A stretch of 32,000 nucleotides of DNA. Source: Acaryochloris marina MBIC11017. GTDB lineage: Bacteria; Cyanobacteriota; Cyanobacteriia; Thermosynechococcales; Thermosynechococcaceae. The DNA lies in NCBI RefSeq assembly GCF_000018105.1, contig NC_009927.1:180001-212000 (forward strand), in the 5' to 3' direction. This document shows, piece after piece, positions 3,317-24,329 of this stretch. The position numbers and the translations under genes are program-made. Every line of letters begins with the position of its first letter. The first letter of the stretch is position 1. The notes under the pieces are model-generated. The model had not been told where the DNA came from. It was given only the letters and a program-made list of their open reading frames with translations, and searched no databases.

Positions 3317-3467
3317 GGCTTGGTTTACCTTTTAGCTAATCGCGGGGAAGCCCCGCTTTGTACTGCAAGTGAAACGAAGCGGTCAACGTCGGGATGAGGA
3401 GCGGTGACCGCAGGGAACAATTCTAGGGACTACATAACACCTCCCTAGAAAAAGCTATAATAAGAAC

Positions 3468-4721
3468 ATGTTCACCATGACGTACCGCTACCGGATTTAC
3501 CCTAGCCTTGAGCAAGAGACACGGATGTTGTCTTGGCTTGAGACTTGTCGCTCTGTGTACAACTATGCGTTGAGAGAGCGAAAAGATTGGATCGGTAGCC
3601 GTAAGTGCCAGATAGACAGATGTTCTCTGCAGTCTGAGTACATCATTCCTGCAGATGCTCCCTATCCTGGCTATTACCCTCAAAAGAAAAACCTGACTCA
3701 GGCTAAGAAAGTCTTGCCACACCTGAAGGATGTGCATTCTCAAGTATTGCAAGATGTTTTGGGCAGGGTTGATGCGTCTTTTGAGGCCATGAGGCAAAGA
3801 GGTCACGGTTTTCCACGCTTTAAGAAGTTTGGACAATACCGTTCCTTCCTGTTCCCTCAGTTCAAGACCAGCCCAGTTCAGGGTAATCAAATTAAGTTGC
3901 CCAAGATTGGTTGGGTTCCGATTACCTTGCACAGACCCATACCCGATGATTTTGATATCAAGACAGTACGGGTTGTCCGCAAGCATTCGGGCTGGTACGT
4001 CGTGCTGTGTATCCAAGCTGATGTCTCTATCCCTGAAGTCCCACCTCATGGGCATTCGATTGGGATTGATGTTGGTTTGGAATATTTTCTGTCTACAAGT
4101 GATGGCGAGCAAATTGCTAGACCTCGCTTTTTCAACAAGCTCCACCGCAAGCTGGAATTGCTGCAACGGTGCTTGAAGCGAAAGCAAAAAAGGTCGAACC
4201 AACGCGCCAAGCTGATTCAGAGAATAGGGCGAGTGCATGAACAAATTGCGGCATCTCGACTGGACTGGCAATTTAAGCTGGCCCATCACCTGTGTGACCA
4301 AGCCCAAACCATCTTTGCTGAAGATTTGGACTTCCGAATCATGGCAAAAGGGATGCTGGGCAAACATACTCTTGATGCAGGGCTTGGGCAATTCCTGAAT
4401 GTTGTTCTGCCTTGGGTTTGCTTCAAGCGTGGAGTTTACTATGTCAAGGTTGACCCTAATGGCACGTCTCAAGAATGCCCTGACTGTGGAGCCAGGGTAA
4501 AGAAAGACTTGAGTGTTCGGATTCATGAGTGTCATGAGTGCGGGTCCGTAAAGCCGAGAGATGTTGCCAGTGGTCAAGTTATCAATGCCCGTGGTCTATC
4601 GGGTGTTCAAATTGCAAGTGGACGGGATCTATCGGGGTTTCAGGTGACTGATGCTAGACAAGACCGGACGAAGCTTGAATATTTCAAGAGCAATCTTGAG
4701 AAGCCCGCGTTGTATGCGTAG
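3468..4721 (+). CDS. tnpB: TnpB/OrfB RNA-guided endonuclease (IS200/IS605 accessory protein)
   Basis: N-terminal YRYRIYPSLEQE...L.....CRSVYNYAL signature. RuvC-I GIDVGL, RuvC-II IFAEDL, zinc ribbon CPDCG...CHECG, RuvC-III RDVASGQVI. Length is 417 aa. Confidence 0.9.
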   Translation: MFTMTYRYRIYPSLEQETRMLSWLETCRSVYNYALRERKDWIGSRKCQIDRCSLQSEYIIPADAPYPGYYPQKKNLTQAKKVLPHLKDVHSQVLQDVLGRVDASFEAMRQRGHGFPRFKKFGQYRSFLFPQFKTSPVQGNQIKLPKIGWVPITLHRPIPDDFDIKTVRVVRKHSGWYVVLCIQADVSIPEVPPHGHSIGIDVGLEYFLSTSDGEQIARPRFFNKLHRKLELLQRCLKRKQKRSNQRAKLIQRIGRVHEQIAASRLDWQFKLAHHLCDQAQTIFAEDLDFRIMAKGMLGKHTLDAGLGQFLNVVLPWVCFKRGVYYVKVDPNGTSQECPDCGARVKKDLSVRIHECHECGSVKPRDVASGQVINARGLSGVQIASGRDLSGFQVTDARQDRTKLEYFKSNLEKPALYA

Positions 4722-5623: not shown

Positions 5624-6620
5624 AGGTGCCCCCTTTGATTAGTAGATAGCTATCGGTAAACCGATTCTTGTAGCCGCTAAATTCAGGCGCACTCAGATCG
5701 GGGAAGGCCGCTGACATTTCCTCTAATTCAGTTTTTAGGTATCGCAGCTTCGGCCCGAACTTGGCCTTAAGCTCTGGACCCCAGACCGGATGGCTACCCC
5801 CAGTCACATAAATCTTGGTTGCAGTGGTGAGCGGGCGAAAGCGATCAAACCTCTCGGAAATCTTAGGCCAAACCTTAGCCTTAGCGCTTTTTAGGATCCG
5901 CCTTGCTGATTGCAATTCTTCCTTGTCCGAGAAGGCAAGCTTGAGACCGTTCTTGTTTCGCACTTCACGACAAATCAGCGTAGCCAAAATCAGCTCATCG
6001 GAAACATGGATGCCGCATTCGTTAATCAATGCAATCATGCCCATTCCCGTGAGAGTCAAACTCTGCTTGGTGATAACGCGACCCTCTCGAACATAAAGAA
6101 TCGAGATGTCTTTGTGACCAAACATGATTGCAATGGCTTCGGCATCTTGAATCTGAGATGCAATCCCCGAACCTTCAGGCAGTACCCGGACCCGTCGAAC
6201 TTTCACGTTTGGCTTAAGACCGTTGAACGTGGATCCATAAATACCTTTCTCTAAGTTCGCTTCCAAGGTCTTGAAATACCGTCCTTCTCCTTGAGGAAGC
6301 AGCACCGTTAGATCTACATAGCCCTCAGTAAAGTTCTCAGTCTCGATTGCTTTGCCCAGCATCCCTAATGCTCTTAAGCTTGCTTGTTCGGCTTTTTGTT
6401 GATGGATATTGGTCTCATAAATCCCATTCCCCGCACTAGCCCCCACGGTCCAGGCTCGATCCTTGTACTCAATCACGCAACTATCCGCTGTCAAGTCTCG
6501 GATCTTCTCTTCCTCAACCGCATTATCTTGAGCGATCCAATGCAAATTATTGTCGATGTAGTAGCATCCCTTCCCCAGGCTTGAACCCAAGTCAGTGCAT
6601 ATCGTCAAATCTCGATCCAT
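5613..6620 (-). CDS. actin-fold ATPase, ParM/StbA-like plasmid segregation protein
   Basis: Phosphate-1-like ICTDLGSSLGKG at the N-terminus, LPEGSGIA, and late VTGGS. Size is 335 aa. An iteron array lies immediately upstream. Confidence 0.55.
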   Translation of the reverse strand: MDRDLTICTDLGSSLGKGCYYIDNNLHWIAQDNAVEEEKIRDLTADSCVIEYKDRAWTVGASAGNGIYETNIHQQKAEQASLRALGMLGKAIETENFTEGYVDLTVLLPQGEGRYFKTLEANLEKGIYGSTFNGLKPNVKVRRVRVLPEGSGIASQIQDAEAIAIMFGHKDISILYVREGRVITKQSLTLTGMGMIALINECGIHVSDELILATLICREVRNKNGLKLAFSDKEELQSARRILKSAKAKVWPKISERFDRFRPLTTATKIYVTGGSHPVWGPELKAKFGPKLRYLKTELEEMSAAFPDLSAPEFSGYKNRFTDSYLLIKGGTYES

Positions 6621-6695
6621 GTATCGAAGCTCCTATGTTTGTTGTTCTTACCTATGTAATAGGGGGCTTCTTCAACACACCAAAATGCTATTTTT

Positions 6696-6780
6696 GTGCA
6701 ATCTTATGTAGTGCATCTGTAGTTTTTATGTAGTACTTCAGTGCAATTTTATGTAGCATACTTGCCACCTAGCTGTAGTA
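6696..6780. repeat. five direct (T/C)TGTAG(T/C) iterons, centromere (parC)-like or replication iterons
   Basis: TGTAG core at 6707, 6718, 6729, 6752 and 6774, giving spacings of 11, 11, 23 and 22 bp. Interleaved GTGCA at 6696, 6711 and 6741. Confidence 0.6.
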
Positions 6781-6890
6781 TTTCCCCAAAACCGCTCAAA
6801 AAGGGCAAAAATCGAAGTCAAAACCACCTTAAAACCTTTGTGTGTCTACGTTTCAGGCTCCAGAAACACCCGATTTCTCGAAAAAGTGAT

Positions 6891-6956
6891 ACCACGACAC
6901 GCCACACTGAGCCACACCGATTGATTTTGTGCCACATCTAGCGACTTTGTACCACG
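6891..6956. repeat. five RCCAC motifs on an exact 10-bp register
   Basis: ACCACG at 6891, GCCACA at 6901, 6911 and 6931, ACCACG at 6951. Offsets are 10, 10, 20 and 20 bp. Confidence 0.55.
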
Positions 6957-7129
6957 GACCTGCTCACCAATCTCTATAACCCTTGCGTGGTCACGGTTTC
7001 AGAGGCCGAAAATCTTTCTGTGGAGAGAAGCCCCCCAATATACGCCTAATCGCCATTACATGGGCCTGGATCGGTTGGAGGCGAAAATTGCGTTTTTCAG
7101 GATTTTTTGTCACACGTTTGAAACTTTTG

Positions 7130-7170
7130 CACTACAGAAATGTAGTGTTTTTGAAATATTTATGCTACAT
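7130..7170. repeat. inverted pair of the TGTAGT iteron (hairpin CACTACA-GAAA-TGTAGTG followed by T5) plus one more inverted copy
   Basis: Hairpin at 7130..7147, TTTTT at 7148..7152, and GCTACAT at 7164..7170 (reverse complement of ATGTAGC at 6751..6757). Confidence 0.5.
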
Positions 7171-7221
7171 ACTTCAGCAGTAAATTTGAAAAATGTGGCA
7201 AGAGGGTAAAAGGGTAAAGGG

Positions 7222-8004
7222 CTACTGAAGAGGCCTGGGCGCAGAACAAACGACTCGAAAACCGAGATTGCTGCTGAGGCTCTTGGGGCTGTCGTTGTTG
7301 CGGTAAGCAGAGCGGCAAATCCTCGGATAGTGTTTCCAGGAGCCGCCGCGACGAATCCGACCAGCGCTTTCATTCTTAGACAACCAAGCACTCCCATCTG
7401 TGGGGGCACCTTTGTAACTGTCATGCCAATGGTCTTGGCACCATTCAAAAACATTTCCATACATATCACTCAGACCAAAAGCATTGGCTATGCCGAAGTG
7501 ATCGACAGGGGTTGTTTCTTCGCCCACATAATTAGCGACATCATTAGTGATGGTTTCCCCAAAATAGTAAGGAGTGGTGGTGCCTGCTCGACAAGCATAT
7601 TCCCACTCTGCTTCACTAGGTAATCGATATGGACGCTTCGTTAGGCTATCTAGTCGATTGCAGAATTCAACAGCCTCATACCAAGAAACTTGTTCAACGG
7701 GACGATTTTCGCCTTTAAAGTAAGAAGGTTCTGATTTTAAAGAACGCTCTACTGTTTCTAATTCAGCTACCACTTTCCACTGAGCTTGAGTGACGGGATA
7801 ACGTGACATAAAAAACGCCGGAACCGTCACCTCATGTTGTGGATCTTCGCGGCCCAATCGATCAGGCTCATCTTCTGGAGAACCCATCATAAAGGTGCCG
7901 CCCGGTACGAGAACCATATGGAGAGGCAAAGCATTGGGAATCTCTAACAGGGGTTCAATATATCCACTGCCAGTACGAGGGGTGCGTCGAAGGGTAGGGG
8001 CCAT
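7222..8004 (-). CDS. stand-alone FGE-sulfatase-fold (FGS/C-type-lectin-fold) protein, DGR target 1
   Basis: Family signatures [54 protein letters not shown] and RRGGSW...CRSAYR...[10 protein letters not shown]. No signal peptide or TM. Confidence 0.9.
7235..7355 (-). repeat. DGR variable repeat VR1 (3' end of 7222..8004)
   Basis: Aligns base-for-base with the TR at offset -951. Encodes [37 protein letters not shown]. Confidence 0.75.
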
Positions 8005-8177
8005 AGCAGTTTTTTGTAGGAGGGCCAGCTAAGTTTTCGGTTTCCCTACCAAAGTAGCCAGCCCAGGTTTATTTTTGGACAGCCCAACGGACCATCACTG
8101 GAATAGGCTCTGGACTCTTCTGGGGCACACCCGACAGATTCCCATCTGCCAGTTCTGGCCTGCTATTGCTAGCGGTA

Positions 8178-8306
8178 GAAGAGTGCTGGGCGCAGAACAA
8201 ACGACTCGAAAACCGATATTGTTGTTGCGGTTCTCGGGGTTGTTGTTGTTGCGGTAAGCAGAGCGGCAATTCCTCGGATTGTTGTTCCAGGAGCCGCTGC
8301 TTTGCG
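8178..8306 (-). other. DGR template repeat (TR), non-coding copy of the FGS C-terminus
   Basis: The minus strand reads ...[38 protein letters not shown] with 12 AAC/AAT codons. There is no upstream FGS domain, no start codon and no stop-flank element. Mismatches to the four VRs are almost all at TR adenines. Confidence 0.8.
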
Positions 8307-8407
8307 GCCTACCCCAGAAATTAGCATAACTGGACTGACCTTATTGATGGCAAGGATACTGAGTTTCTTTATGCTGAATGGCGTCCTTTCTTTGATCACA
8401 TCTAACG

Positions 8408-8545
8408 ATGAATACTGAATTGCCCATCATCCAGAAAACCTACGACCTGATTAAATGGTATGTCCCGATCATCAATCGATTGCCCGGAGTTCATCGGTTT
8501 CAACTGGGAGAAAAGAGCAGACCATTAAAATTCGTAAAAGGGTAA
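8408..8545 (+). pseudogene. avd: truncated avd (DGR accessory variability determinant), 45 codons
   Basis: [36 protein letters not shown] matches my recollection of the N-terminus of cyanobacterial four-helix-bundle Avd proteins (about 115-130 aa). The frame degenerates and stops where the conserved 3' flank of the 8558..9394 gene begins. Confidence 0.55.
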
Positions 8546-8557
8546 GAGGGTATAGGA

Positions 8558-9394
8558 CTACGGAAGAGACCTGGGCGCAGAACACACTACACGAAAACCG
8601 ATACTGTTGTCGCGGAACTTGGGGTTGTCGTAGTAGCGGTAAGCAGAGCGGCAATACCTCGGATTGAAGTCCCAGGAGCCGCCGCGACGAACTCGATATG
8701 CACTGTCATTCTCAGATATCCAAGCACTTCCATCTGTGGGGCCACCATCATAATCATGCCAATGGTCTTGGCACCATTCCCAGACATTCCCATGCAGATC
8801 ACTCAGACCAAACGCATTGCCTCCACCAAAGTGATCTACGGGAGTCGTTTGTTGGCGGTATTCTCCTTTGGGGCCACCACCATAGGACCCTGACAAGCCG
8901 ATAGATTCATCACCAATTCCATCGTAATTTGCTAGGTCAGTGGTAATCGTTTCTCCAAAGTGAAATGGGGTTGTGGTGTCCGCTCGACAGGCATATTCCC
9001 ACTCTGCTTCCGTGGGTAAACGATATTGTCGATTTGTGAGGTTGGTGATGCGATCGCAAAACTCAACTGCGTCATACCAAGACACTTTCTCAACTGGGTT
9101 GAGGTCACCTTTGAAATTCGATGGTTCAGAATCTAGCTCCCGATTAACTTGTTCCATCGCTGCTACCACCCGCCATTGGGCTTGGGTGACGGGGTATTGA
9201 GCCATAAAAAACCGAGAAAGGGTTACCTCATGCTGCGGTCCTTCAAAGTCTGAGCGGTCAACTTCCTCATTCGGAGAACCCATCAGAAAAGTTCCAGCAG
9301 GTATCTGCATCATCCGCAAAGGCAGCACGCCCTCAGCAAGAATCTCGTCGTAGAACTGGAGTGGGGCTTTGGTTTTGGTTATCGTATAACTCAC
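8558..9394 (-). CDS. stand-alone FGE-sulfatase-fold protein, DGR target 2
   Basis: Same signatures: [52 protein letters not shown] and RRGGSW...CRSAYR...[10 protein letters not shown]. Confidence 0.9.
   Translation of the reverse strand: MSYTITKTKAPLQFYDEILAEGVLPLRMMQIPAGTFLMGSPNEEVDRSDFEGPQHEVTLSRFFMAQYPVTQAQWRVVAAMEQVNRELDSEPSNFKGDLNPVEKVSWYDAVEFCDRITNLTNRQYRLPTEAEWEYACRADTTTPFHFGETITTDLANYDGIGDESIGLSGSYGGGPKGEYRQQTTPVDHFGGGNAFGLSDLHGNVWEWCQDHWHDYDGGPTDGSAWISENDSAYRVRRGGSWDFNPRYCRSAYRYYDNPKFRDNSIGFRVVCSAPRSLP
8571..8691 (-). repeat. DGR variable repeat VR2
   Basis: Aligns with the TR. Encodes [37 protein letters not shown]. Confidence 0.75.
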
Positions 9395-9436
9395 TGGAAA
9401 ATTCTTAAGAAAGTAATAGGGTAAAAGGGTAAAGGG

Positions 9437-12400
9437 CTACGGAAGAGACCTGGGCGCGGAACAAACGACTCGAAAACCGATAAGGTTGTCGCGGCCACCG
9501 GGGCCGTCGTTGAGGCGGGAAGCAGAGCGGCAATTCCTCGGAGGGCCGAGCCAGGAGCCGCCGCGACGCATCCGACGAGTGCTTTCATTCTCAGACAACC
9601 AAGCACTCCCATCCGTGGGTGCATCATAGTAATTGACATGCCAATAGTCTTGGCACCATTCCCAAACATTTCCATGCATGTCACTGAGACCAAACGCATT
9701 GGCAAAACTAAAATAATCTATAGGTGTTGTTTCTCCTCTTCTTTCACCTTTTGGACCATCTACAAAAGCACTTCCGCTGTAGTTAGCGACATCAGTAGTG
9801 ATCATGTCACCAAAGTGGAACGGGGTAGTGGTGCCCGCTCGACAGGCATATTCCCATTCGGCCTCCGTGGGTAATCGGTATTCACGGCCCGTGTATCTAG
9901 AAAGACGGTCACAAAACTCTATCGCGTCGAACCAGGATACTTTTTCTATTGGCCTATTATCCCCTTTGAATCTAGCTGGATCAGTCTCTAGTTCACGCTC
10001 AATCTGAGGTTGATTTGCAACGACTCGCCACTGAGCCTGGGTAATCGGGTAACGGCCTATAAAAAAGGACTCAACTGTAACTTGATGCTGAGGACCTTCA
10101 CGAACAAGCCTCTCAGGTTCAGTGTTTGGTGAACCCATCATAAAGGTACCAGCAGGTATTGATACCATTTCTAAATCTATTTTATCTAGTAGCCGCTCTA
10201 TATATCTATTTGCTGACTGTTGGTGTTGTTCCGTTTCCCATTTTTTCTGGCTCAAAATCAACTTAGCAACTGTAAAATCAAAGGATTCCACATTGATCGC
10301 ATCAGATATAGATTCCTCTGGCTGCAACCTTAAAATCGTGAAATCTCCTGTTTGCAACGGTGGCGGAAAGATATCTTGTTGAGAAGGCGGTACAAGGAGT
10401 GGATCATCCCAAAGGAAGGCTAGATCCCTAGCCCAATGGAATAATGGATTATCCTCTGTTGCTGCAAGACGAACGGCGAACACCTTCATGGGAATCTGCT
10501 CCATTGTTCCGTTGAGGATGTTCTCATTAAGAAACTGTTGCCAATTATCAGTGATTTTTTCTTTACGACTCCACAATACAATTGGAGTACCATTTTCAAG
10601 TACTCCTCTAACTTCTGCACTTTGGAAACCAGAGCCAAGGGTCAAGCCTAATCGAGAGCCTTGACTTAACGAGATCAGATCTTCAGGTTGACCAAAGGGC
10701 CAATTATCAAATGCATCGTTGGAATTATCGTTCCAACGTTCTTGCAACTGTGCCCACTGTAATTGCAATTTTTGGGTATATTGAAGACTCTCAACGCGCT
10801 CTTTTAAGCGCAACACTACAAAATTACAGTCCCTGCCAATCCCTATAGGATCATCGGTATTTGATAGAGAGGGGATGCCCATCTGTTCTATCGGTAAATC
10901 TAGTAAACTCTGGGGAAGAAACAGATGGATAGTGAAAACAGTCTTTTCAGTTTGGGTACGGGCTTGCTCTAATAAGCTGGCTAAAACACTTGGAATATCT
11001 TGAAAGGTAATCCCCTCAGATAATCTAGAGTCGCTACTACCATTTCCGTATCGATTGATATCCAAGGTAGATAAATACTGAACACCTTCTCCTGTCTGGG
11101 CATTGTAATTCTTGGGATTTGGCACCAACCAAGCGTCGACAAAGTACTGATCGGCCTTGGGACTACGTTCATCAAACGAGATAAGTAAAGTAGTGAGGGG
11201 CACTTTCGGAAGAATTTCTATGTCATTGGCAAGTACCCCTTCATCAAACTCGAATGCTTCGAGTTCAGGGAAGTTGATATATTCTGAAACTTGGTAGGTT
11301 AGGGTCTCATGGGTGAAACCTTCCAACCAAGCCACTTCATTTTGACGATTTTCTAAGCCTGAATCGTCTTGCCTCTGTTGACTCTCTAATTGGCGCACGA
11401 TTTCAGCAAAATCTGACCCAGCTGTACGTAAAATCTGAGCCGTCACTTTGGCAAAGGCTTTTAATCCATATTGGTCTACCTCATCTTTCAGATCAGGAGA
11501 TAGTAAGAGAGCTTGGAAATCAGCCAGTGTACAATTCAATCGTTCTGCGACATGTTGAGATACTTTTTCGATCACCTCAAGCTTGTCTACATTGGGTAGA
11601 ACATCCAGCAGGCGGTTGCGTACCGTCTCTGGAAAAAGATATTGTACGACTTCAGACTCTAACTCTGGTGGTTGTTCAGGTGCTTTGGTTAGTAGCCCTC
11701 CCAAAAACACCTCGGCCACAGGTAGGGGGGATGAACCAGGTAAGAACTCATCTGAAGCACGGATAAGTCGCATTACAGGCAGAGTTATAACAGGTGCTGC
11801 GGATAACAACGCAGCTAATCGCCGAGCTTCTGGCGTTGCCCTTAACCGAAAGTCTTCTAGCAAGCCATCAACAATTTCTTCTGACTCCAATTCGCTGGAT
11901 GTTGGGGTTGCGGACCATCCTGTTGAAGGCAACATAAAGCCTGGAGCTGAGTAGCGTCGATCTCCCGCTAACATTCGGCTCCAAGCACCAAGATATTCAC
12001 TATCACTCGTGATGATAGGAATACAGACTGGTGATGAGGATTGGGTTTCCTGGGTTTGGTCTGGTTCTTGATCACTCCGACGGCGACCACGATTCACAGT
12101 TGATCGCAAAGACATATAAATTGGGGTTAGTTTGGTGTTTTTTGCTCCCGGTGTTCGACTACGAACAGCCACATACTCTCCAATCCCTAATGCAGTTCGT
12201 TTCCACATCCAATCGGGTAACACTTGCCAGATCGCCGTGGGTGTTGAATCTCCCCAAAGGGACAATATTGGCTGCAACGAACCATCCCACCAGTAGTTGG
12301 CTGTGCAATCACTAAAGACTAAGATCAATCGCCGAGCATCGGGAGTTAAAAGTGCGTTAGGAGAGCGTAGTACTGGATCTGGGGCAGCACAGATGCCCAC

Positions 12401-13042
12401 TTCCCCCTGCTTCACATTGAGTTGCCAAACTCGAAAATCACGAAAAGAGCCATAACAGCGTAGCAACCTCCTTATATCTTGGATTAACCTCTGCCAAAGA
12501 TCCATCGCTGGGCTGCTATCAATGACCAAGGCCACTTCATACCACGGTTCTTGGTCCGGTTCTAGGATCGGGGACCAGATATCAGTTTCAGCAATGCGCT
12601 CAACTGTCTCAGCTTCATTCACTGAACTGCAAAACTGGGAATCAATTTGCTTCAAGATAGGCTTCAGTGCCCTGACTAGGGGTAAGGTTTCATCCAGAAT
12701 GTCAGGGTCAGGAATAGAGATGGGTAAAGCTTTTTGGGGAAGTTTCCCCGAAGGCAACTCCGGTGCAACGCCAAAGTCCGGTTCGTCTACCTCGTCATTC
12801 TGGTTATCATTGTCGTCATCCTCTTCGTTTCCTGCATCCTCTTCGTTTCCATTTTCCAAGTCGAGATTGTCATCATCAACATCCTCAAGCTCCAGGTTGT
12901 CATCAGGATCTTTGTTCTCTTGATCGACATCACTAACATCAAATTTCTCTGGTTCGCGCAATGCCAGCCATAGGATTTCAGCTATTTCAGTAGGGTCTAG
13001 CTTATATTCAGTCAGAGCGGACACAAATTGCTCAGTACTCAT
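9437..13042 (-). CDS. large multidomain protein: short N-terminal helical module, acidic linker, vWA-like domain, long middle region, C-terminal FGE-sulfatase-fold sensor (DGR target 3)
   Basis: vWA-like strand/MIDAS region YEVALVIDSSPAMDLW with a later LILVFSDCTANYW. D/E/N-rich linker at aa 36-90. The C-terminal 270 aa carry all FGS signatures ([10 protein letters not shown] ... RRGGSW...CRSASR...[10 protein letters not shown]). The start lies 14 nt after the MoxR stop. Confidence 0.85.
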   Translation of the reverse strand: MSTEQFVSALTEYKLDPTEIAEILWLALREPEKFDVSDVDQENKDPDDNLELEDVDDDNLDLENGNEEDAGNEEDDDNDNQNDEVDEPDFGVAPELPSGKLPQKALPISIPDPDILDETLPLVRALKPILKQIDSQFCSSVNEAETVERIAETDIWSPILEPDQEPWYEVALVIDSSPAMDLWQRLIQDIRRLLRCYGSFRDFRVWQLNVKQGEVGICAAPDPVLRSPNALLTPDARRLILVFSDCTANYWWDGSLQPILSLWGDSTPTAIWQVLPDWMWKRTALGIGEYVAVRSRTPGAKNTKLTPIYMSLRSTVNRGRRRSDQEPDQTQETQSSSPVCIPIITSDSEYLGAWSRMLAGDRRYSAPGFMLPSTGWSATPTSSELESEEIVDGLLEDFRLRATPEARRLAALLSAAPVITLPVMRLIRASDEFLPGSSPLPVAEVFLGGLLTKAPEQPPELESEVVQYLFPETVRNRLLDVLPNVDKLEVIEKVSQHVAERLNCTLADFQALLLSPDLKDEVDQYGLKAFAKVTAQILRTAGSDFAEIVRQLESQQRQDDSGLENRQNEVAWLEGFTHETLTYQVSEYINFPELEAFEFDEGVLANDIEILPKVPLTTLLISFDERSPKADQYFVDAWLVPNPKNYNAQTGEGVQYLSTLDINRYGNGSSDSRLSEGITFQDIPSVLASLLEQARTQTEKTVFTIHLFLPQSLLDLPIEQMGIPSLSNTDDPIGIGRDCNFVVLRLKERVESLQYTQKLQLQWAQLQERWNDNSNDAFDNWPFGQPEDLISLSQGSRLGLTLGSGFQSAEVRGVLENGTPIVLWSRKEKITDNWQQFLNENILNGTMEQIPMKVFAVRLAATEDNPLFHWARDLAFLWDDPLLVPPSQQDIFPPPLQTGDFTILRLQPEESISDAINVESFDFTVAKLILSQKKWETEQHQQSANRYIERLLDKIDLEMVSIPAGTFMMGSPNTEPERLVREGPQHQVTVESFFIGRYPITQAQWRVVANQPQIERELETDPARFKGDNRPIEKVSWFDAIEFCDRLSRYTGREYRLPTEAEWEYACRAGTTTPFHFGDMITTDVANYSGSAFVDGPKGERRGETTPIDYFSFANAFGLSDMHGNVWEWCQDYWHVNYYDAPTDGSAWLSENESTRRMRRGGSWLGPPRNCRSASRLNDGPGGRDNLIGFRVVCSAPRSLP
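9450..9570 (-). repeat. DGR variable repeat VR3
   Basis: Aligns with the TR. Encodes [37 protein letters not shown]. Confidence 0.75.
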
Positions 13043-13056
13043 TTACAGCCAGCCTC

Positions 13057-14238
13057 TCAGGTCAAACGCCTTAGCAAAATCTGTTTGAGCATTTCAAGTT
13101 CAGTTTCTTTATCCTCTTCACTCAAACCCGAACCCGATAGCTGAGACTGGCGAACCATGTAAATTAAATTGAGGAGCTGATCCGTTGCCAAAGAAGACTG
13201 TTTACGCTGAAGATCCTTGGCAAAGTTCTCAATCAATTGTGCAACTTTTGGTTCTAATTCTGACCAGGGCAGTTCTGTCTTAGGGCGGTCTTTCCGCTCA
13301 AAATGAGCACCTACTATATGGGTTAAAACGGCACTGTCAGAAGGATCTGGCATCGTGATTCGCAGACAGCGGCGCAAAAAGGCGGGGGGAAAGTCACGTT
13401 CTCCGTTACTAGTCATAATCACCAAGGGGAACTCATAACAAGTAACCTTGCCTTGCTCAATGTCAGCAGGGAGACCTTCATCCTCTGTACGGACTGGAAC
13501 AGGCACATCCGTTTTGTAGCGGACGAGTTCAGGTATCTCAAAACTACCTTCTTCAAAGAGGTTGAGAAGATCATTCGGTAAATTCAGCTCGCTTTTATCA
13601 ATTTCATCTATCAGCAATACTCGGGGTAAATGGGAAGGTAAAAAAGCGGTACCTACCGGGCCAAGTTGGATATAATCGCCAAGATTTCTACCTTGTTTTA
13701 ATTCATCAATTTTGTTGTGATCTAATGGCTGATCGTCCGACTTTGCCAGCAGCAACTGGAGTTCAAGTTCCGATTTATCAAATTGGGTGTCCTGCAAACG
13801 GGCAATCGCATCATAGCGATACTGGGCATCAGAAAGCTTGGAACGAGTGGTAATGGGCCAGAGCAAAACTGGCCCCAGTTGTAATTCATAGGCGATCGCA
13901 TAGGCTAAAGAGGTCTTACCTGAACCTGGATTTCCCGTGATAAGTAGTGGACGTCGCAATGCCAAGGCTGAGTTTATAGCTGAAATAATTTCAGATTGCC
14001 TACCTTCAGATTGACGGATACGAAAGCTTTCGCCACGTTCTTTTGAACGAGTATCAAGACGATTTGAGTCTCGCAATTGCTTCCAGCGAGTTTTACTAGC
14101 ACCAGCCCACTTATCCTCAAAGATTGCTTGTGACATAAACTGCCGCCATGCGGGTCGCTCCTGAATAGGTTTCAGGGCGGCTTGGCGGGGTGTCCTATCT
14201 TCATTGGGTTGGGCTGTAAAAAATTTCCAGTCAGTCAT
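13057..14238 (-). CDS. MoxR-like AAA+ ATPase
   Basis: Walker A LLITGNPGSGKTSLA, Walker B VLLIDEIDKS, sensor-1 VIMTSN, Arg-finger region PPAFLRRC. Single AAA+ module of 393 aa. Operonic with the vWA gene, which is the classic MoxR-vWA pairing. Confidence 0.85.
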   Translation of the reverse strand: MTDWKFFTAQPNEDRTPRQAALKPIQERPAWRQFMSQAIFEDKWAGASKTRWKQLRDSNRLDTRSKERGESFRIRQSEGRQSEIISAINSALALRRPLLITGNPGSGKTSLAYAIAYELQLGPVLLWPITTRSKLSDAQYRYDAIARLQDTQFDKSELELQLLLAKSDDQPLDHNKIDELKQGRNLGDYIQLGPVGTAFLPSHLPRVLLIDEIDKSELNLPNDLLNLFEEGSFEIPELVRYKTDVPVPVRTEDEGLPADIEQGKVTCYEFPLVIMTSNGERDFPPAFLRRCLRITMPDPSDSAVLTHIVGAHFERKDRPKTELPWSELEPKVAQLIENFAKDLQRKQSSLATDQLLNLIYMVRQSQLSGSGLSEEDKETELEMLKQILLRRLT

Positions 14239-14264
14239 AGTGGAATCACCAATCTTTTGGGCTT

Positions 14265-16211
14265 TTAAGTCGGTTGCGTCAACCGACCGGATTCATTGAC
14301 AGCTAATGTAGGTAAGCACGGTATCCGGGTGCAATTATCAAATAAAAACCCCAGTTCTTGAATCTTTTTTCGGTGGGTCAAAATTGACTCTCCCAAGGCA
14401 GCAGATTCCGTAAAATTCTCGGGTTTCAACACTTTATCCACAGTCTTTTTGAATTCATCCCCATTTACAGGAGTTTCATAAGTCCACAACCAAAGTGGCA
14501 CTTTCTCTTCAATCACTCCTGAAATTAAGCTTCTTAATTCATCTATATCTTCTGGCAATGTCTCCCAAAGTTTAAAGACCAGTTTCTCCGGTAATTCGTC
14601 TTCAAATATTTCATCCGTGAAACACTCTACGCAACAGGTATGTTGATCTAGAGGTTGTTGCATAGTTTTTAACTGCTGCATTCTAACCTTTAAATCTTTA
14701 ATCCATAATTCAGACCAAAGTGGATCTAATAATCGATCTAATGAGCGAACAACAGTGTTGTATGGAAATCGCCAAAGTGGCTTACGACGTGTTTTTCCTA
14801 AACTCGTCCAAATTTTCCATTTGTGAACAGGCTGCCCAAAATGTTGCCAAGACAAGAAAATCTCAACCGCTCTCACTTCCCCCGCATTGGGAATTACTTC
14901 TGATAAGTGCTCCCATACTTGTTCAATCGAGCATTTAGGATAATCGGTTAATAAACTTGTTCTTGTTTGTTCTCCGCAAACATAGAGTTCCGCCAAAATT
15001 CGAACGGTATCTACCGTAGCACTTGCATCACCAGGTTCCGTATCTACAACAGGCTCTAATGTGACCAGAAGATATTTCTGACTCGGTTCTTGCTTTGGGT
15101 CAACTTCAAGCTCGGTGGGTGCGTTAGCGTCATACCATACCTGCCATTCAGGTTTTATTTCACATTCATTCTCATTGTTAGGAAAGTCTTGTAACTTTTT
15201 GATCAGATGACCGACCCAAGACACTGCCAACACCTGATCGTCCAACCGAATAAGGGCCTGCTTCAACGCGGCGAAGGTTTCAATCGAGCCTAGTAAATCG
15301 TCTTTACGATTGTCTAAAACCTCCCTCAGTGCAGCTTCAAGAAAATCTAGATCATAATCTCCCAAGCATATAAATAAATCGTCCCAAAACTTAGTCTCAA
15401 CCTTATAAGAAGTTTTCCCTACTCCAGGAATTCTGGGTTTAGGGTCATAATTTGCCAACAGGTGAAAAGCTAAAGCACTGGCATGATGAGAAGCCTTTTG
15501 CTGACGCTTATCTTCAGATTTTTGCCCCTTGCCATCATTCTTATGATCAATCAAGTCTGAGATGCCCCGAATCACAATAGCGGATAGTGGTTTGTCACGG
15601 GCATTGACAGCCTCAAGGAATCCATATCCTTCCATCTCCACGGCCAAAGCATCACTATAATTTTTTCGCAGCAATTTATAAACGTTCGACTCTTTTGAAG
15701 CCACTACCTTTTCGCCAACAGCGATTGGCCCCACCCTAAGGCGAGGGGTTGTATTATAAGGCTGTTTAACTCTTGCCAACCAATTTGGTGCTTCACTTCG
15801 GGCTTCTGCCTTGGCTTCCTCTACCAGGCTGAAGCCACTCAAGCCAATGTGAGGTCGTGGTTTGAATTCTTCCTCAGCCTTACCGGATTCATAGCCATAG
15901 ATTTTTGTAGACGCAACGACATCACCTATATCTACATCTTTTAGACCTCCCGCTACACCGACAAAGAAAACAACATCAGGATCAAAATATGTAATGGCCC
16001 GTTCTGTTTGTAGGGCAGATCTTGAGTCACCAGCTCCAGTCTGCACGATGCCTACTGTCCATATGCGACCATTCGCTTTAAATGTCCCCTTCTCATATCG
16101 ATTTCCTTCAGGATGAATAATGCGCGTGGGATCGGCGACAAACTTTCTTACTTCTTTAAATTCAACGGGTAATGCTGTCAGAATGACGGCTTTCAAGGAA
16201 TCCTGAACCAT
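14265..16211 (-). CDS. nucleoside phosphorylase/nucleosidase-fold (PNP_UDP_1-like) effector fused to a ~400-aa C-terminal region (vWA-MoxR-associated, VMAP-like)
   Basis: N-terminal 250 aa: AVILTALPVEF, VQTGAGDSRSAL, FFVGVAGGL, AVEMEGYGF and VIRGISDL. These are the conserved strands and loops of the MTA/SAH-nucleosidase / PNP fold. The stop lies 26 nt upstream of the MoxR start. Confidence 0.8.
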   Translation of the reverse strand: MVQDSLKAVILTALPVEFKEVRKFVADPTRIIHPEGNRYEKGTFKANGRIWTVGIVQTGAGDSRSALQTERAITYFDPDVVFFVGVAGGLKDVDIGDVVASTKIYGYESGKAEEEFKPRPHIGLSGFSLVEEAKAEARSEAPNWLARVKQPYNTTPRLRVGPIAVGEKVVASKESNVYKLLRKNYSDALAVEMEGYGFLEAVNARDKPLSAIVIRGISDLIDHKNDGKGQKSEDKRQQKASHHASALAFHLLANYDPKPRIPGVGKTSYKVETKFWDDLFICLGDYDLDFLEAALREVLDNRKDDLLGSIETFAALKQALIRLDDQVLAVSWVGHLIKKLQDFPNNENECEIKPEWQVWYDANAPTELEVDPKQEPSQKYLLVTLEPVVDTEPGDASATVDTVRILAELYVCGEQTRTSLLTDYPKCSIEQVWEHLSEVIPNAGEVRAVEIFLSWQHFGQPVHKWKIWTSLGKTRRKPLWRFPYNTVVRSLDRLLDPLWSELWIKDLKVRMQQLKTMQQPLDQHTCCVECFTDEIFEDELPEKLVFKLWETLPEDIDELRSLISGVIEEKVPLWLWTYETPVNGDEFKKTVDKVLKPENFTESAALGESILTHRKKIQELGFLFDNCTRIPCLPTLAVNESGRLTQPT

Positions 16212-16298
16212 TCAAATTTGTGATTTTTTTAGGGTTTCTAGTCTAATGCTCAGTAGAAAATACAAGTATAGTGATTAGGTAATACCATATTTAGAATA

Positions 16299-16853
16299 AT
16301 GGATCGAACTGAGAAAACATTACAAATATTTTTGGAAGAATATCGTGTCCTCAAAGCTGAACAAAATAGTCGAATCGGATTTCGAGACAATCTACTCTAT
16401 GTCACATTAGGTCTTTTTGGTGGAATCCTTTCTTTTGCCCTAACAAACGATAACGGGACAAACGCATTACTTGTTGTTCCTTGGGTCTGTATAGTTATGG
16501 GCTGGACCTATGTAGTCAATGATGAAAAGATTTCAGCGATAGGTCGCTATATTAGACACAATCTTGAAAAAAGGATTTCTAATCTCATTGAAGGGTCTGC
16601 AGATTCCGAATCTTTGTTTGGTTGGGAAAAAGCTCATCGCAGCGATTCTAAACGAACAAGTCGCAAATACTTACAGCTATTAGTAGACGAAGTTGCTTTT
16701 GTTTTTTCAGGCTTAGCAGCAATAGTTCTATTCTGCTTATCCAGTACTAATTGCCCAACCCCAATCATCATTTTAATAGCCTTTGAATCTTTCTTCCTCA
16801 TTAGTTTAGGAATCACAATTGCTATCTATGCTGATTTAGCAAAAGGACGCTGA
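16299..16853 (+). CDS. integral membrane protein (184 aa, about 4 TM), function unknown
   Basis: Hydrophobic segments LLYVTLGLFGGILSFAL, ALLVVPWVCIVMGWTYV, VAFVFSGLAAIVLFCL and IIILIAFESFFLISLGITIAIY. Divergent from the PNP-MoxR-vWA operon. Confidence 0.5.
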   Translation: MDRTEKTLQIFLEEYRVLKAEQNSRIGFRDNLLYVTLGLFGGILSFALTNDNGTNALLVVPWVCIVMGWTYVVNDEKISAIGRYIRHNLEKRISNLIEGSADSESLFGWEKAHRSDSKRTSRKYLQLLVDEVAFVFSGLAAIVLFCLSSTNCPTPIIILIAFESFFLISLGITIAIYADLAKGR

Positions 16854-16908
16854 ACTAGCCAGATTTCCAGTCATTATAAAAATTGCAAGAGGGAAAAAGG
16901 GTAAAGGG

Positions 16909-17709
16909 CTACTGAAGAGGCCTGGGCGCTGAACAAACTACTCGAAAACCGATATGGCTGAGGCGGCTCTCGGGGGAGTTGTAGGAGCGGCAAGCAGAGC
17001 GGCAATCCCACGGATAGCTGTACCAGGAGCCGCCGCGAATAACGCTAGAGTCATCAATTCTATCCCCCTCCCAAAAGGGGCTACCATCTGATGGCACGTC
17101 AAGGTAATCAGAGCCGTAGTAGTCTTGGCACCATTCCCAGACATTGCCATGCATATCATATAACCCCCAACGATTAGGGGAATAACTTTCAACAGCACTT
17201 GTTTGGCCTATCATTTCATCTTCTAAGTAATTTGCCAGTTTGGGAGTGATTTTTTGCCCAAAATGATATGCAGTCTGAGTTTCAGCTCTACAGGCATATT
17301 CCCACTGGGTTTCACTAGGTAAGTGAAAATTTTTTCCAGTCTTTGATGACAGGCGCTTGCAAAATTCTACTGCTTCATACCAACTTACCGACTCTACAGG
17401 GAAGTCATCACTTTCGAATGCTGAAGGTGATAGATCTACAGTTCCATCTTGTTCTTCATACCCGGCTACTACCCGCCACTGTTCCTGAGTAACAGGTGTA
17501 GTTCCCATCAAAAATTGAGGTAATTGGATACATTTTTGGCGTTGTTTATCTTGGGTGTCACCTGATTCATTTTCATCATTACTAATCCACAATTCCCCTG
17601 CAGGAATAAGCATTAATGTCAGTGGCACATCATCACCGAGATCTATGGTGTAGCTCTCATTCGTACACTCATATTCAAAGAGGGTGAGGGAATCAACAGT
17701 ATTAGCCAC
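16909..17709 (-). CDS. stand-alone FGE-sulfatase-fold protein, DGR target 4
   Basis: [42 protein letters not shown] and IRGGSW...CRSACR...[10 protein letters not shown]. More diverged in its N-terminal half than the other paralogues. Confidence 0.9.
   Translation of the reverse strand: MANTVDSLTLFEYECTNESYTIDLGDDVPLTLMLIPAGELWISNDENESGDTQDKQRQKCIQLPQFLMGTTPVTQEQWRVVAGYEEQDGTVDLSPSAFESDDFPVESVSWYEAVEFCKRLSSKTGKNFHLPSETQWEYACRAETQTAYHFGQKITPKLANYLEDEMIGQTSAVESYSPNRWGLYDMHGNVWEWCQDYYGSDYLDVPSDGSPFWEGDRIDDSSVIRGGSWYSYPWDCRSACRSYNSPESRLSHIGFRVVCSAPRPLQ
16922..17042 (-). repeat. DGR variable repeat VR4
   Basis: Encodes [37 protein letters not shown]. In the 81-nt variable core, all 16 mismatches to the TR are at TR adenines (hand alignment). 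Confidence 0.8.
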
Positions 17710-17855
17710 TGACCTAGAGAGAAGATGTTAGTGATTTTTAAGCAGATACATAATTTGATATTTGATCATTGTTGCACCATCTACTATATTTTTGGCCTTT
17801 CATAAGAATTTGCCTATCTATATAAATATAGGCCAACAATTTTTTGAGCTAGTCT
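17710..17855 (+). promoter_or_regulatory. candidate oriT / relaxase promoter region
   Basis: AT-rich intergenic segment directly upstream of the relaxase. It contains the inverted repeat TTGGCCT..(28 nt)..AGGCCAA enclosing GCCTAT-CTATATAA-ATAGGC (about 17793..17841). No nic site could be identified by eye. Confidence 0.3.
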
Positions 17856-20800
17856 ATGCTAAACATTACCACCATCAACTCAAATATCAAGGATGGGGCC
17901 AAGTACTACACCAAAGAAGAGAGTTACTACAGCCAAAACAAAGAAATTCAGAGCATGACTCAAACAGAATGGTTTGGCAGCATGGCACCGGATGAGCATT
18001 ACTCTGCCGAGCTTTTCACGGAGATGTTTTACGGCAACCTTCCCAACGGCGGGCGTATGCGAAATGAGGTCAAGGGAAAGGGCCAAGAACGCTTAGCTTA
18101 CGACCTTACATTCTCTGTTCCTGGTAAATCTCTCAGCATGTCTATCCACGGACCTAACGGAGATAAGCGACTCTGGAATGCCCACGTTGAGACTATCAAG
18201 GAAGTGCTGGCCATCGTAGAAGAACGCTACGCCGCCGCTAGAATTCAGGCCAACAATGATCGCCAAGTTGTGAAGACAAGCAGCATCGCCGCTGCCCTCG
18301 TCCACCACCATGAAACCAGAGCTGGGGATCCGCATGTACATACCCATGTCGTTCTTTTCAACGGCACCCTATGCCCGGACGGTGAATATAGGGCTATGTA
18401 TATCGAGCCTCTCATTAGAAGCGGTATTTTAGGCGATCTGTACGACCAGAAGATGGCCCTCAAAGTCCAAGAGCTGGGCTATGAAATCCGAGAGACAAAA
18501 ACAGGCTTTGACCTTGCCGGGGCTACAGATGAGCAGATTAAAAAATTCAGTAAGCGCTCAACGGAAATCGAGGATTATTTAAAAGAGAAAGGTTGGAGCA
18601 ACACCCCAAAAAATCGACAGAAGGCAACCTTTGAGACTCGAATCGGCAAGGATATTACGGAGTCATTAGAGCAGAAGCAGGAAAGATGGGGAGAAGAGAT
18701 GGCCTCAGTCGGTTTCCATGGCCTAACTCCTTCCGATCAACCTATCAAGCCTGAAAGCCAAGAGACACCCAGAGAGCTTTTAGACGCTGCTATCGAACAT
18801 CTAACAGAACATCAATCCTCGTTCAATGCCGAGGACATACAGCGGTTTGTGTTCTCTCACCTCCGAAGTTTTGATGAGAAGCCCTTGAACACCGAGATAT
18901 CCAAGCACCCGGACTTGCTAACTGCCTGGGATGGCCGACTGACTACACAGACCGCTGTCGATAGAGACCAACGAATTCTAGATATCGTCCTGTTTAAGGA
19001 TAGTAAGGTTGAACCGCTGAACCCAACCGCTGACTTTAGCGACACGATGTTAAACAGTGGTCAGGCCGAAGCCATGAAACGCTTACTCAGCTTTTCAGAT
19101 CAGTACCAAATCCTAAAGGGACTAGCAGGCACGGGGAAGACAACTGCTCTCGGCCTTGCAAGAGAGCAGTTACCCCCGGATGTCGATATCAAAGTTTTTG
19201 CACCTACCCACAACGCCAAACATCAAATCAGTGAGGCCTTTGGACTTAAGGGGGCAACCATAGCCAGCTTTGTTGTCAGCCCACCCCCAGAAGGGGCTAA
19301 CCAGCTTTGGATATTTGATGAAGCGGGCATGTTTGGCAGCGCAGACATGGAGAAGATACTTCAGAAAGCCGAACAGGTGGGGGCTAGGTGTTGGTTTGTC
19401 GGCGACACGGGTCAGAATGCCTCTATCTCTGCTGGTGCGCCTGTACGAATGCTGATGAATAGAGGGGTCACAGTTCACCGCCTTGACCAGATCATTAGAC
19501 AGCAAAACAAAGAACAGCTTAGGGCCGTTGAGCTTATCGCCGATGGTCACGGGGTTGAGGCTCTCAGAGCCTTAGAAAAAAATGGAAATATCAGAGAAGT
19601 CGAGGACTCGGAAACCAAGCTCACAAGTGCCGTTGCCTATTACATGGAGAAGCCTAAACATCGCCGAGACAAAACTCTCGTTGTGGTGGGGACCAATGCT
19701 GAGCGGTTTGGTTTTACCAAACTCCTAAGAGCCGAGCTTATCAAGGAAGGCCAGCTTACCAAGAATACAGAATTCACCCAGCTCCAGCGAAGAAACCTAT
19801 CTAAGGCCCAAAAGAAACGGGCCGAGAACTATAACAAGGGCGATTTACTGGTACTGCACAAGAAGCACCGACTCTATACCCAATTGCAGACCCATGTCCC
19901 TTATAAAGTCCTCGCCGTGGAGGGCAAAAAACTCAAGGTCCAATCACTGGGCGGTCGGAATTTCACCATCAATCCTGCAGAACATGAGTTAACCCAGGCT
20001 TATACGACAAGGCGCAATCAAATTGCTGTTGGTGATAAGCTCCGGTTCACTTCAACCAACATGAAAAAGGATATTCACAATAATGCTTTTTTGACCTGCA
20101 CCGATATCAAAGATCAGATTGCAACGGTCAAAGACAAACACGGTCGAGTGCATCACTTAGACCTCACCAAGCCCCTACAGATAGATCATGACTGGGCCAC
20201 TACCACTTATAGATCACAAGGTAGTACCAACTCAGAAACCCTCTATATTGCTAGCCTTAACCCTACCTCAGCTAGAGAATCCTTTTATGTTGGCATCTCC
20301 CGAAACAAGACTAAATACCTGACCGTATTTACGGAGGACCTGAGTAAGCTCCAAGAGTGGGTTGCACAGTCCAATGCTCAAGAGAACGCACTAGAGATAC
20401 TATTTGACCCCCATGCGGGCTGGAGTCCAACCTATGACAAGGAAGAACGGCCCTTTGGCTTGGATGAGGACACATGGACCGAGATGAAAGGTAGCGGTAT
20501 TCACCCCAACCTATTGACCTCGAACCATCTCCGAAGTGAAGCCCCCGATCCTTATGGATCTATCCGTGATAACCCACTAGTTGCAGCCCTCTTGGAGGCT
20601 GAGTTTACCAAGTCCAAATACGGCAAAGGCCAGGAAGTTACTGGCAAAATGAAACAATATCTACACGGTGCTTCGACAGTGGAAGGCCATACCGTCTATG
20701 ACCATGAAAAAGAATATGGTCGGATTGCTCAAGGTGGGGGTTGGATTGGTTATGGTGGCGTTGATTTGCTTTCAGTCATTGAGGGCAATCCTCAACCATC

Positions 20801-21809: not shown

Positions 21810-22225
21810 GCCGGTTCTTGTTCCTTAGCTTTGGCCTTAGCCCGCACAAGGTTCCTCACCTTCAAGCCAACAAGACCCATGCCAACAATCACAAACGCAA
21901 TCCCCACAACGGGAATCAAAGGAAAGGAAGGACCGGCGACAGCGACAGGCGCACTAACTGGGCTGGCTGGCTCTTCCACGGGTATATAAGCGGGGGAAGA
22001 TTTATCTCTGGTCTCCCCTGGCACCGGTCCCTTGTTGATGGCTTCTAGGTCCACTTTTCGGTCAAATCTGAAAGCGACATCAAAGGAGGTAATTTCAACG
22101 CCGCATTCTCGGAAATCTGCAAAGGGAATCCTTAGTCGAGTGGAGTTTTTCGCGAAATCTTCCTTTGTCCATTCGCACATTGGTTTTGGCCTCGCTGGAT
22201 GTTGGCTAGCGAAAAGGGGCGACAC
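21806..22225 (-). CDS. tail-anchored membrane protein (139 aa)
   Basis: C-terminal TM LIPVVGIAFVIVGMGLVGL followed by a Lys-rich tail. Convergent with the relaxase and overlaps its stop by 4 nt. Confidence 0.4.
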   Translation of the reverse strand: MSPLFASQHPARPKPMCEWTKEDFAKNSTRLRIPFADFRECGVEITSFDVAFRFDRKVDLEAINKGPVPGETRDKSSPAYIPVEEPASPVSAPVAVAGPSFPLIPVVGIAFVIVGMGLVGLKVRNLVRAKAKAKEQEPA

Positions 22226-22266
22226 ACCTTATCACCCCTTTTTTACCATTAGTCTACGTTTTCTTG

Positions 22267-23802: not shown

Positions 23803-23853
23803 TGCAGATCCTCATAGGTGTACACGTATTTGATAGGGGCCAAACCTCAAACA

Positions 23854-24297: not shown

Positions 24298-24329
24298 ATT
24301 TTTCTGCCTTCCTTTGCTACTTTCTTGCT

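Follow-up and report, generated by a model that had tools for sequence, protein, structure and literature searches.

Introduction

A clade of diversity-generating retroelements (DGRs) in cyanobacteria and other multicellular bacteria diversifies putative sensors of conflict systems of the vWA-MoxR-VMAP type (Dore et al. 2024, PMC10907252). The same article describes, for Thiohalocapsa PB-PSB1, 'degenerate' DGR loci that have no reverse transcriptase (RT), and considers a possible activity of DGR components in trans. Here we analyse a stretch of 32,000 nucleotides from Acaryochloris marina MBIC11017 (assembly GCF_000018105.1, contig NC_009927.1, positions 180,001 to 212,000 of the forward strand), hereafter the window, whose positions are counted from its first letter. 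Its minus-strand segment 8178-8300 is very likely the template repeat (TR) of a DGR from which a deletion of ~1.3 kb took the RT, leaving a well-preserved, probably disabled locus.

The cyanobacterial C-type-lectin (CLec)/FGE-sulfatase DGR clade, whose targets are signalling proteins and VMAP ternary conflict proteins (PMC7517822; clade 5E in PMC10907252) and to which we assign the TR, resembles the window in its RT family, in having variable repeats (VRs) at the 3' ends of genes, in serving several targets from one TR, and in its MoxR and VMAP neighbours. Most members of this clade carry the TR after the RT on the same strand, whereas the window and its nearest subclade carry it antisense and upstream of avd. 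The 2020 survey by Vallota-Eastman et al. (PMC7517822) makes no mention of Acaryochloris. The Thiohalocapsa PB-PSB1 loci are alike in that the RT or other machinery is missing while the targets, and sometimes the TRs, persist; in them (PMC10907252), the RT is replaced by MITE-like arrays (miniature inverted-repeat transposable elements) or transposons, whereas the window carries a clean, microhomology-flanked deletion. The host phylum and the replicon type also differ from the cyanobacterial conjugative plasmid of the window.

Cassette architectures, including avd-TR-RT, avd-RT-TR and variants, have been catalogued (PMC5758913). The prototype DGR, that of Bordetella phage BPP-1, with the order avd-TR-RT and a single target in contrast to the four targets of the window, is alike in the adenine mutagenesis between TR and VR, in Avd, and apparently in the differing ends of the two repeats (IMH and IMH*, for initiation of mutagenic homing); where it has a GC-rich hairpin after the VR, the window has pyrimidine-rich octamer repeats. 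Its RNA, compared by description, shares with that of the window a TR-bracketing duplex and a stem-loop, Avd-binding in the phage and a candidate for this role in the window. More generally, in DGR RNAs the sequences on either side of the TR pair into a duplex, and just downstream of the TR there is a 9-bp Avd-binding stem-loop, in Cyanobacteriota often with a GNRA cap (Handa et al., bioRxiv 10.1101/2023.10.23.563531). Structured RNAs adjoining bacterial RT genes, to which the RNA described below is alike, have been collected as the motifs RT-1 to RT-19, among them RT-14 (RF02921); RT-10 was assigned to the Bordetella phage DGR, and other motifs were suspected to serve DGRs (Weinberg et al. 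2017, PMC5737381).

The only close match to the locus in the plasmid collection is pREC1 of Acaryochloris marina MBIC10699 (NZ_AP026076.1, about 54.4-59.8 kb). Its annotated order is ParM, an FGE gene, a short 'hypothetical' stretch that corresponds to the TR, IS200/IS605, avd, an RNA-directed DNA polymerase, two FGE genes, MoxR, a serine protease and a MobF relaxase, with the TR on the minus strand and avd and RT on the plus strand. The two plasmids are alike in backbone (ParM, MobF relaxase, type IV secretion genes) and gene order, as well as in the antisense TR upstream of avd, the FGE-sulfatase targets and the MoxR neighbour. They differ at the machinery itself, pREC1 having a full avd and a 369-aa RT and the window a 34-codon avd stub and no RT.

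Results

An intergenic template repeat serving four FGE-sulfatase genes

Read on the minus strand, positions 8300 to 8178 can be aligned gap-free with the closing ~40 codons, at the 3' ends, of four FGE-sulfatase genes. The segment is non-coding, is 99.2% identical to the TR of pREC1, and contains 12 AAC or AAT (AAY) codons in its in-frame translation. No open reading frame (ORF) of at least 60 aa lies in this reading frame, and the only ORFs crossing the segment (8169-8399 and 8069-8269) are off-frame. The four VRs are also on the minus strand. VR1 (7227-7349) forms the 3' end of the gene for a 260-aa FGE-sulfatase protein (7222-8004) and differs from the TR at 15 positions, 11 of which are template adenines. 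The corresponding counts are 18 and 14 for VR2 (8563-8685; 278-aa FGE-sulfatase gene, 8558-9394), 23 and 20 for VR3 (9442-9564; 1201-aa VMAP-C and FGE-sulfatase gene, 9437-13042), and 21 and 18 for VR4 (16914-17036; 266-aa FGE-sulfatase gene, 16909-17709). VR4 lies 8.6 kb from the TR, while the other three targets are adjacent to it. All four target proteins match the FGE-sulfatase family PF03781, which has a C-type-lectin fold, with Pfam E-values of 1e-43 to 1e-55, and each VR stops 5 nt short of the gene end coordinate, stop codon included.

Over the 121-nt core and the four VRs, template adenines hold 63 of the 77 mismatches, although A accounts for only 32 of the 121 bases (binomial P=5e-24). 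Within the same core, 28 of the 32 A positions vary in at least one VR, compared with 8 of the 89 non-A positions (Fisher P=3e-16), and all but one of the TR adenines (31/32) occupy codon positions 1 or 2. The two kinds of repeat part at their 3' ends. Past the common ...GCGCCCAG, the gene copies read G(C/T)CTCTTC, the stop codon and GCCCTTTACCCTTTTACCC, whereas the TR side reads CACTCTTCTACCGCTAGC...; the VRs end in CAGG(C/T)CTCTTC and the TR in CAGCACTCTTC, with complete divergence beyond, which on sequence alone resembles the IMH and IMH* ends. The flank common to the four gene copies (stop codon, then GCCCTTTACCCTTTTACCC...) is absent 3' of the TR. Because the mismatches are adenine-specific, because pREC1 holds a syntenic intact DGR, and because the segment belongs to a conserved, covarying RNA (see below), we identify it as a TR.

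These observations bear out an earlier note on this DNA, made from the letters without database searches, which had taken 8178-8306 for a DGR template repeat, coordinates that are essentially exact compared with the 8178-8300 of the alignment. Its description of the segment as a copy of the last ~40 codons of four FGE-fold genes with 12 AAC/AAT codons, having neither a start codon nor an upstream FGE-sulfatase domain, crossed by off-frame ORFs only and missing the flank of the real gene copies, agrees with the gapless alignment to the four PF03781 gene ends, the codon count, the in-frame ORF search and the divergence after the TR end. The check it proposed, a tabulation of mismatches by TR base, yields the uneven distribution given above. 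It had also raised a full-length ORF continuing through the segment in a corrected assembly, and the same non-coding arrangement is found in an independent Logan contig (L003, run DRR194263) and in pREC1.

Immediately after the stop codon of every VR lie three to four tandem pyrimidine-rich octamers with the consensus RCCCTYTT, reading GCCCTTTA CCCTTTTA CCCTCTTG after VR1 (7197-7222) and recurring as the same element after VR2 (8534-8558), VR3 (9413-9437) and VR4 (16885-16909), all on the minus strand. A comparable repeat follows 77 of the 112 VRs of the whole RT clade, compared with 0.5% of random 75-nt windows; the VR flanks in loci L001 and L011-L088 carry it, and it is absent after TRs. 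The octamer repeat may serve for recognition on the target side, in place of the GC hairpin that phage DGRs have, and our literature search found no published description of an octamer repeat after VRs. A G-quadruplex was considered as a general feature of VR flanks and discarded, a strict four-tract G-quadruplex/i-motif (four CCC tracts) being present in only 12 of the 112 flanks.

The template repeat is embedded in a covarying DGR RNA

Whichever of the two cassette arrangements a locus has, a conserved block of ~150 nt comes after its TR, and we aligned 50 such blocks (alignment A1). The consensus fold of these 50 relatives contains 37 pairs, 26 of them with compensatory changes. The paired fraction of alignment cells is 96.7%, compared with 33-46% after sliding the partners by 1-3 columns, and the covariation is matched by none of 500 shuffles. 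The window copy keeps all 37 consensus base pairs. Together, the 5' duplex strand, the TR and the 3' structured domain make up a complete DGR RNA gene at 8022-8317 (~296 nt, minus strand), which is 97.5% identical to its pREC1 counterpart.

All elements of this RNA are given on the minus strand. The 5' strand of the TR-bracketing duplex, CTGGGGTAGGC at 8307-8317, forms 11 bp with its partner GCCTATTCCAG at 8098-8108, similar to the 'cPRT Stop' duplex known from DGR RNAs (Handa et al.), and a perfect duplex of at least 8 bp exists at the same place in 42 of 49 relatives, in 33 sequence variants. In helix 1, the last 7 nt of the TR, ACTCTTC (8178-8184, the IMH*-like end), pair with GAAGAGT at 8114-8120 (95.4% of cells paired, compensatory changes at 2/7 pairs). 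Helix 3 (8131-8152) is a 9-bp stem with a GGGA (GNRA) tetraloop, 98.7% of its cells being paired and 6/9 pairs showing compensatory changes; its fit to the published pattern of 9 bp with a GNRA cap in Cyanobacteriota makes it a candidate Avd-binding stem-loop. The 3' domain of the consensus continues with helix 4, a hairpin of variable length (8077-8098), and ends in the long hairpin of helices 5 and 6 (8022-8064), with compensatory changes at 9/10 pairs. Compared by description only, these features appear to match the published DGR RNA elements. Against the whole RT-14 model of Rfam (RF02921), 8022-8168 scores 34.4 bits with E=0.0067 (search of 701 nt), short of the gathering score of 48.1, and neither the window nor 12 relatives give any Rfam match at the gathering score; the cyanobacterial RNA is at best a distant relative of RT-14 and not a curated member.

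In the alignment of the antisense subclade, a TATNNT-like box lies ~7 nt upstream of a GGGGTAGG motif, which we do not claim as a promoter. At the other end of the RNA, the VR1 gene starts on the same strand only 18 nt downstream of the last hairpin, with 8005-8021 between them and no terminator-like site found there. In many relatives a target gene likewise directly follows the DGR RNA, which may double as the leader of the target mRNA.

The reverse transcriptase and most of avd are missing

Pfam scans of the large ORFs of the window found no RVT_1 domain, and tblastn with the pREC1 RT found no RT homologue in the window. With pREC1 Avd as the query, only residues 1-32 match (90.6% identity, plus strand 8420-8515). 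The avd remnant occupies 8407-8544 on the plus strand, its codons 1-34 (8407-8511) being Avd-homologous and followed by an out-of-context tail and a stop; the stub is 95% identical to pREC1 in DNA and covers only positions 3-34 of the 107 positions of the bAvd profile PF22296 (E=0.0076), compared with 76 bits for full pREC1 Avd. The earlier note therefore stands in its reading of the template, whereas it had passed over the incompleteness of the element, namely that the window has no RT and that avd is cut to a 34-codon stub.

The breakpoints can be placed by comparison with pREC1. Positions 5630-8419 are collinear with pREC1 up to avd codon 4, the site of the pREC1 insertion sequence (IS); 8420-8511 equals L001 11621-11712, where pREC1 has the first 92 nt of its avd as annotated, beginning with original codon 5; and 8534 onward equals L001 13072 onward, the sequence just past the RT stop codon. 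The junction between them (8512-8533, plus strand) consists of 22 nt aligning to the last ~10 RT codons and stop, and the breakpoints have a common microhomology, CAACTGGGAGA / CACTGAGGAAGA. A deletion between short stretches of similar sequence has thus removed ~1.33 kb, from avd codon ~35 to RT codon ~358. Contig L003 (window 19132..8187) reproduces the junction at 100% identity, and five other runs agree over the parts of the window that they cover. In the ~10 kb beyond the right window end, which hold conjugation genes and a sigma factor, no RT was found. Since the RT is present in the syntenic relative, the locus is best described as a DGR derivative rather than a complete DGR.

The avd start of the window is uninterrupted (ATGAATACTGAATTGCCC), whereas in pREC1 an IS200/IS605 element with tnpA and tnpB (L001 9819-11620) is inserted between avd codons 4 and 5 and cuts avd-RT off from its presumed promoter.

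Relatives of the element and the frequency of RT-less loci

We scanned 80 genomic loci encoding relatives of the pREC1 RT (the best matches in species representatives) with a simple TR/VR finder. These RTs are 61-80% identical to that of pREC1 and come from Leptolyngbya, Nostoc, Microcystis and others. A TR was detectable in 67 loci. In 58 of them it shares the strand of the RT and comes immediately after it; in the nine closest relatives with a detectable TR it lies antisense, ~120 nt upstream of avd(-RT), as in the window. A third order occurs in the metagenome contigs L128, L154 and L159, where the TR-RNA is upstream of avd-RT on the same strand and the RT follows 480-700 nt downstream of the RNA core. 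In a cyanobacterial metagenome-assembled genome, a group II intron domain (RF00029, 44.4 bits; L029 8374-8451, minus strand) lies beside the DGR locus.

Scanning metagenome contigs with an exact pattern of the RNA core gave 80 readable loci, of which 46 were assessable, RT-less being defined as at least 1.8 kb on the RT side without an RT. By this definition 34/46 have an RT and 12/46 have no adjacent RT. Four RT-less loci (L130, L150, L165, L172) are full-length FGE/CLec ORFs, open over 270-356 codons, whose diversified, non-AAY 3' end runs into the 3' domain of the RNA, which looks like the expected product of a recombination between VR and TR that deletes avd-RT. One further locus has an internally deleted RT. 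At three others (L111, L152, L162), an AAY-rich TR-RNA module stands alone, the 8-11 kb upstream of it being free of any RT, and the mismatches to neighbouring VRs fall on adenines in 14/14, 16/18, 14/14 and 15/16 cases; these modules are candidates for templates served in trans or for very recent RT loss. The RNA keeps 34.75 of 37 pairs in RT-less loci and 35.0 of 37 in RT-adjacent ones, a comparison biased by the search pattern itself. RT loss is thus frequent and occurs by several routes, and the window is one more instance, with another kind of deletion.

Plasmid context and a putative conflict system

Positions 8022-8511, comprising the RNA, the intergenic sequence and the avd stub, are 95-100% identical to pREC1, compared with 76-81% in the flanking genes, and the block has a sharp edge at 8021/8022. 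The pattern suggests that related plasmids recently exchanged the DGR core, or that the core is strongly selected. The fourth target, VR4, has no equivalent in pREC1.

Next to the VR3 gene, the minus strand encodes a MoxR-like AAA ATPase (13057-14238; AAA_5/AAA matches in Pfam) and a protein with PNP_UDP_1 and VMAP-C matches (14265-16211; Pfam), whereas pREC1 has a serine protease effector beside MoxR. From their domains, the VR3 gene, the MoxR-like ATPase and the PNP_UDP_1/VMAP-C protein appear to form a conflict system of the vWA-MoxR-VMAP type, a ternary system reportedly described by Kaur and co-workers in 2020. For vWA, the 1201-aa protein has no Pfam match at E<=1; a DxSxS-like motif (VIDSSPAM) is present in its N-terminal half.

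Pfam matches of other window proteins include a TrwC relaxase, a coupling protein, an M23 peptidase, a TnpB-like protein and an actin-like partition protein, the last with an ALP_N match and a pREC1 counterpart annotated as ParM/StbA. The conjugative backbone at 17856-31984 consists of a TrwC/MobF relaxase with DUF3854, a TraG/TrwB coupling protein, and an M23 peptidase and cell-wall hydrolase; a 478-aa protein (29916-31352) is identical to its pREC1 homologue. At 3468-4721, the plus strand encodes the TnpB-like protein (OrfB_IS605, HTH_OrfB_IS605, Cas12f1-like TNB), with no tnpA identified beside the gene, and an overlapping antisense 384-aa ORF (3423-4577) is probably spurious.

Discussion

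By the established DGR mechanism, an intact element of this kind would transcribe an RNA of ~296 nt (8317..8022) from the minus strand, which would fold so that the long-range duplex brackets the TR, with the GNRA-capped stem-loop and the further hairpins 3' of it. A complex of RT and Avd would bind this RNA and copy the TR into cDNA with misincorporation opposite adenines, and the cDNA would replace the homologous 123 nt at the 3' end of the target genes. The four VRs, which differ from the TR almost only at template adenines of AAY codons, are a record of past homing events. After the deletion, the RNA gene and the targets are intact and the machinery is gone. The locus most likely no longer diversifies on its own, leaving its four targets as frozen variants, and any residual activity would need RT and Avd from another replicon. 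The 95-100% identity of the DGR core block to that of pREC1 makes a recent deletion probable, or may mean that the RNA is still under selection.

Two other explanations concern the nature of the segment and of the gap. Homology to gene 3' ends together with the absence of a start codon and of an upstream domain is also what a pseudogene remnant of a fifth FGE-sulfatase paralogue, with a coincidental load of AAY codons, would present. Such a decayed fragment should differ from the genes at all four bases, however, whereas 82% of the differences fall on A, which makes up 26% of positions (P=5e-24). The segment is moreover orthologous to the TR of an intact DGR, is conserved at 99% between the two plasmids where the surrounding real genes reach about 80%, and adjoins a covarying RNA structure known beside the TRs of more than 50 DGRs. 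The mismatch spectrum and the pREC1 synteny rule this explanation out for practical purposes. The missing RT could alternatively be an artefact of assembly, in which collapsed TR/VR repeats hide a true avd-RT between 8511 and 8534, and short-read contigs of the region do break at repeats. Yet the junction lies outside the repeats, in a unique stretch that has the avd stub on one side and the 3' flank of VR2 on the other, and the separate assembly L003 spans it without a mismatch. The last ~10 RT codons remain recognisable there with microhomology, as is the signature of a real deletion. We consider an artefact very improbable and reject it.

A further explanation is that the RT-less TR-RNA module, retained as a separate template gene, is still active, an RT and Avd encoded on the chromosome or on another plasmid diversifying the four targets in trans. 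This would account for an RNA gene that keeps 37/37 pairs and 97.5% identity to that of pREC1. It would also fit the 12 of 46 assessable metagenome loci that are RT-less with an RNA about as well paired as elsewhere (34.75 vs 35.0 of 37), and the almost pure A-site mismatches of the stand-alone, AAY-rich TRs in L111, L152 and L162. Trans activity of DGR components has been proposed for the degenerate Thiohalocapsa loci (PMC10907252). However, no RT turned up in the sequences that can be assigned to the same source. That of pREC1 is present in GCA_024347835.1 and DRR374621 only and not in the runs carrying the window, the best 80 RT matches in species representatives include no Acaryochloris genome, the other Acaryochloris plasmids in PLSDB do not carry this RT, and the closest RT homologues among the Logan matches (P0002, P0006) come from other samples. 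For the VR1 protein no database record was found, and other proteins of the window match Logan runs only (SRR296940xx and DRR194262-65), for which our search gave no citing paper. The RT-less metagenome loci, for their part, were found by a pattern that requires a conserved RNA core and so favours an intact look. The VRs of the window also carry more non-A mismatches than is typical, as detailed below, and on balance we hold continued service in trans to be unlikely.

A locus frozen by RT loss is expected to leave its trace in the VRs. Each window VR carries 3-4 non-A mismatches, compared with a median of 1 where an intact RT is adjacent in a genome (112 VRs; one-sided Mann-Whitney P=0.0014), with a mean of 0.56 among metagenomic VRs (n=27; P=0.0004 vs the window VRs), and with one in each pREC1 VR. 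Several of them are synonymous changes at third codon positions (8203, 8200, 8194) and lie in the 3' portion of the repeat, which every homing event should overwrite. The TR itself has a G-to-A change at 8298 that is reflected in none of the four VRs, and the VR consensus sequences are identical across six sequencing runs. The excess fits drift after RT loss and is suggestive only. Several observations weigh against a frozen, disabled locus. The excess is modest and comes from four non-independent VRs compared with a reference set filtered for at least 75% A-mismatches, and the intact relatives L013, L020 and L023 have similar non-A counts. The identity of the VRs across runs may reflect one strain sequenced repeatedly, and consensus assemblies hide minority variants. 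An intact RNA gene in a near-identical core is also what continued use in trans predicts. The RT search covered the 32 kb of the window plus ~10 kb to one side; the plasmid and the genome are probably much larger and may hold an RT-Avd pair elsewhere. Finally, a simple scan found no sigma-70 promoter near the 5' end of the RNA.

A bolder possibility, which we regard as rather doubtful, is that RT-less TR-RNA modules are maintained as 'satellite' templates on a conjugative plasmid and borrow the RT and Avd of the recipient, the clade-wide octamer repeats acting as the DNA-side recognition element instead of the hairpin of phage DGRs. If true, the plasmid would carry a transferable set of targets and template that is diversified by the resident machinery. 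The window and pREC1, which share their backbone and have TRs 99% identical, provide a natural pair of RT-minus and RT-plus plasmids for studying both service in trans and the rate of VR drift.

The locus also illustrates that a reading of the raw sequence can recognise a DGR TR that ORF callers do not report. Our survey suggests that about a quarter of loci with this DGR RNA have no adjacent RT, which matters for DGR finders that start from the RT. Degenerate RT-less DGR loci are already known, and what is added here is a plasmid-borne cyanobacterial case from Acaryochloris, by which a conjugative plasmid of this genus joins the cyanobacterial DGRs that diversify putative MoxR-VMAP sensors.

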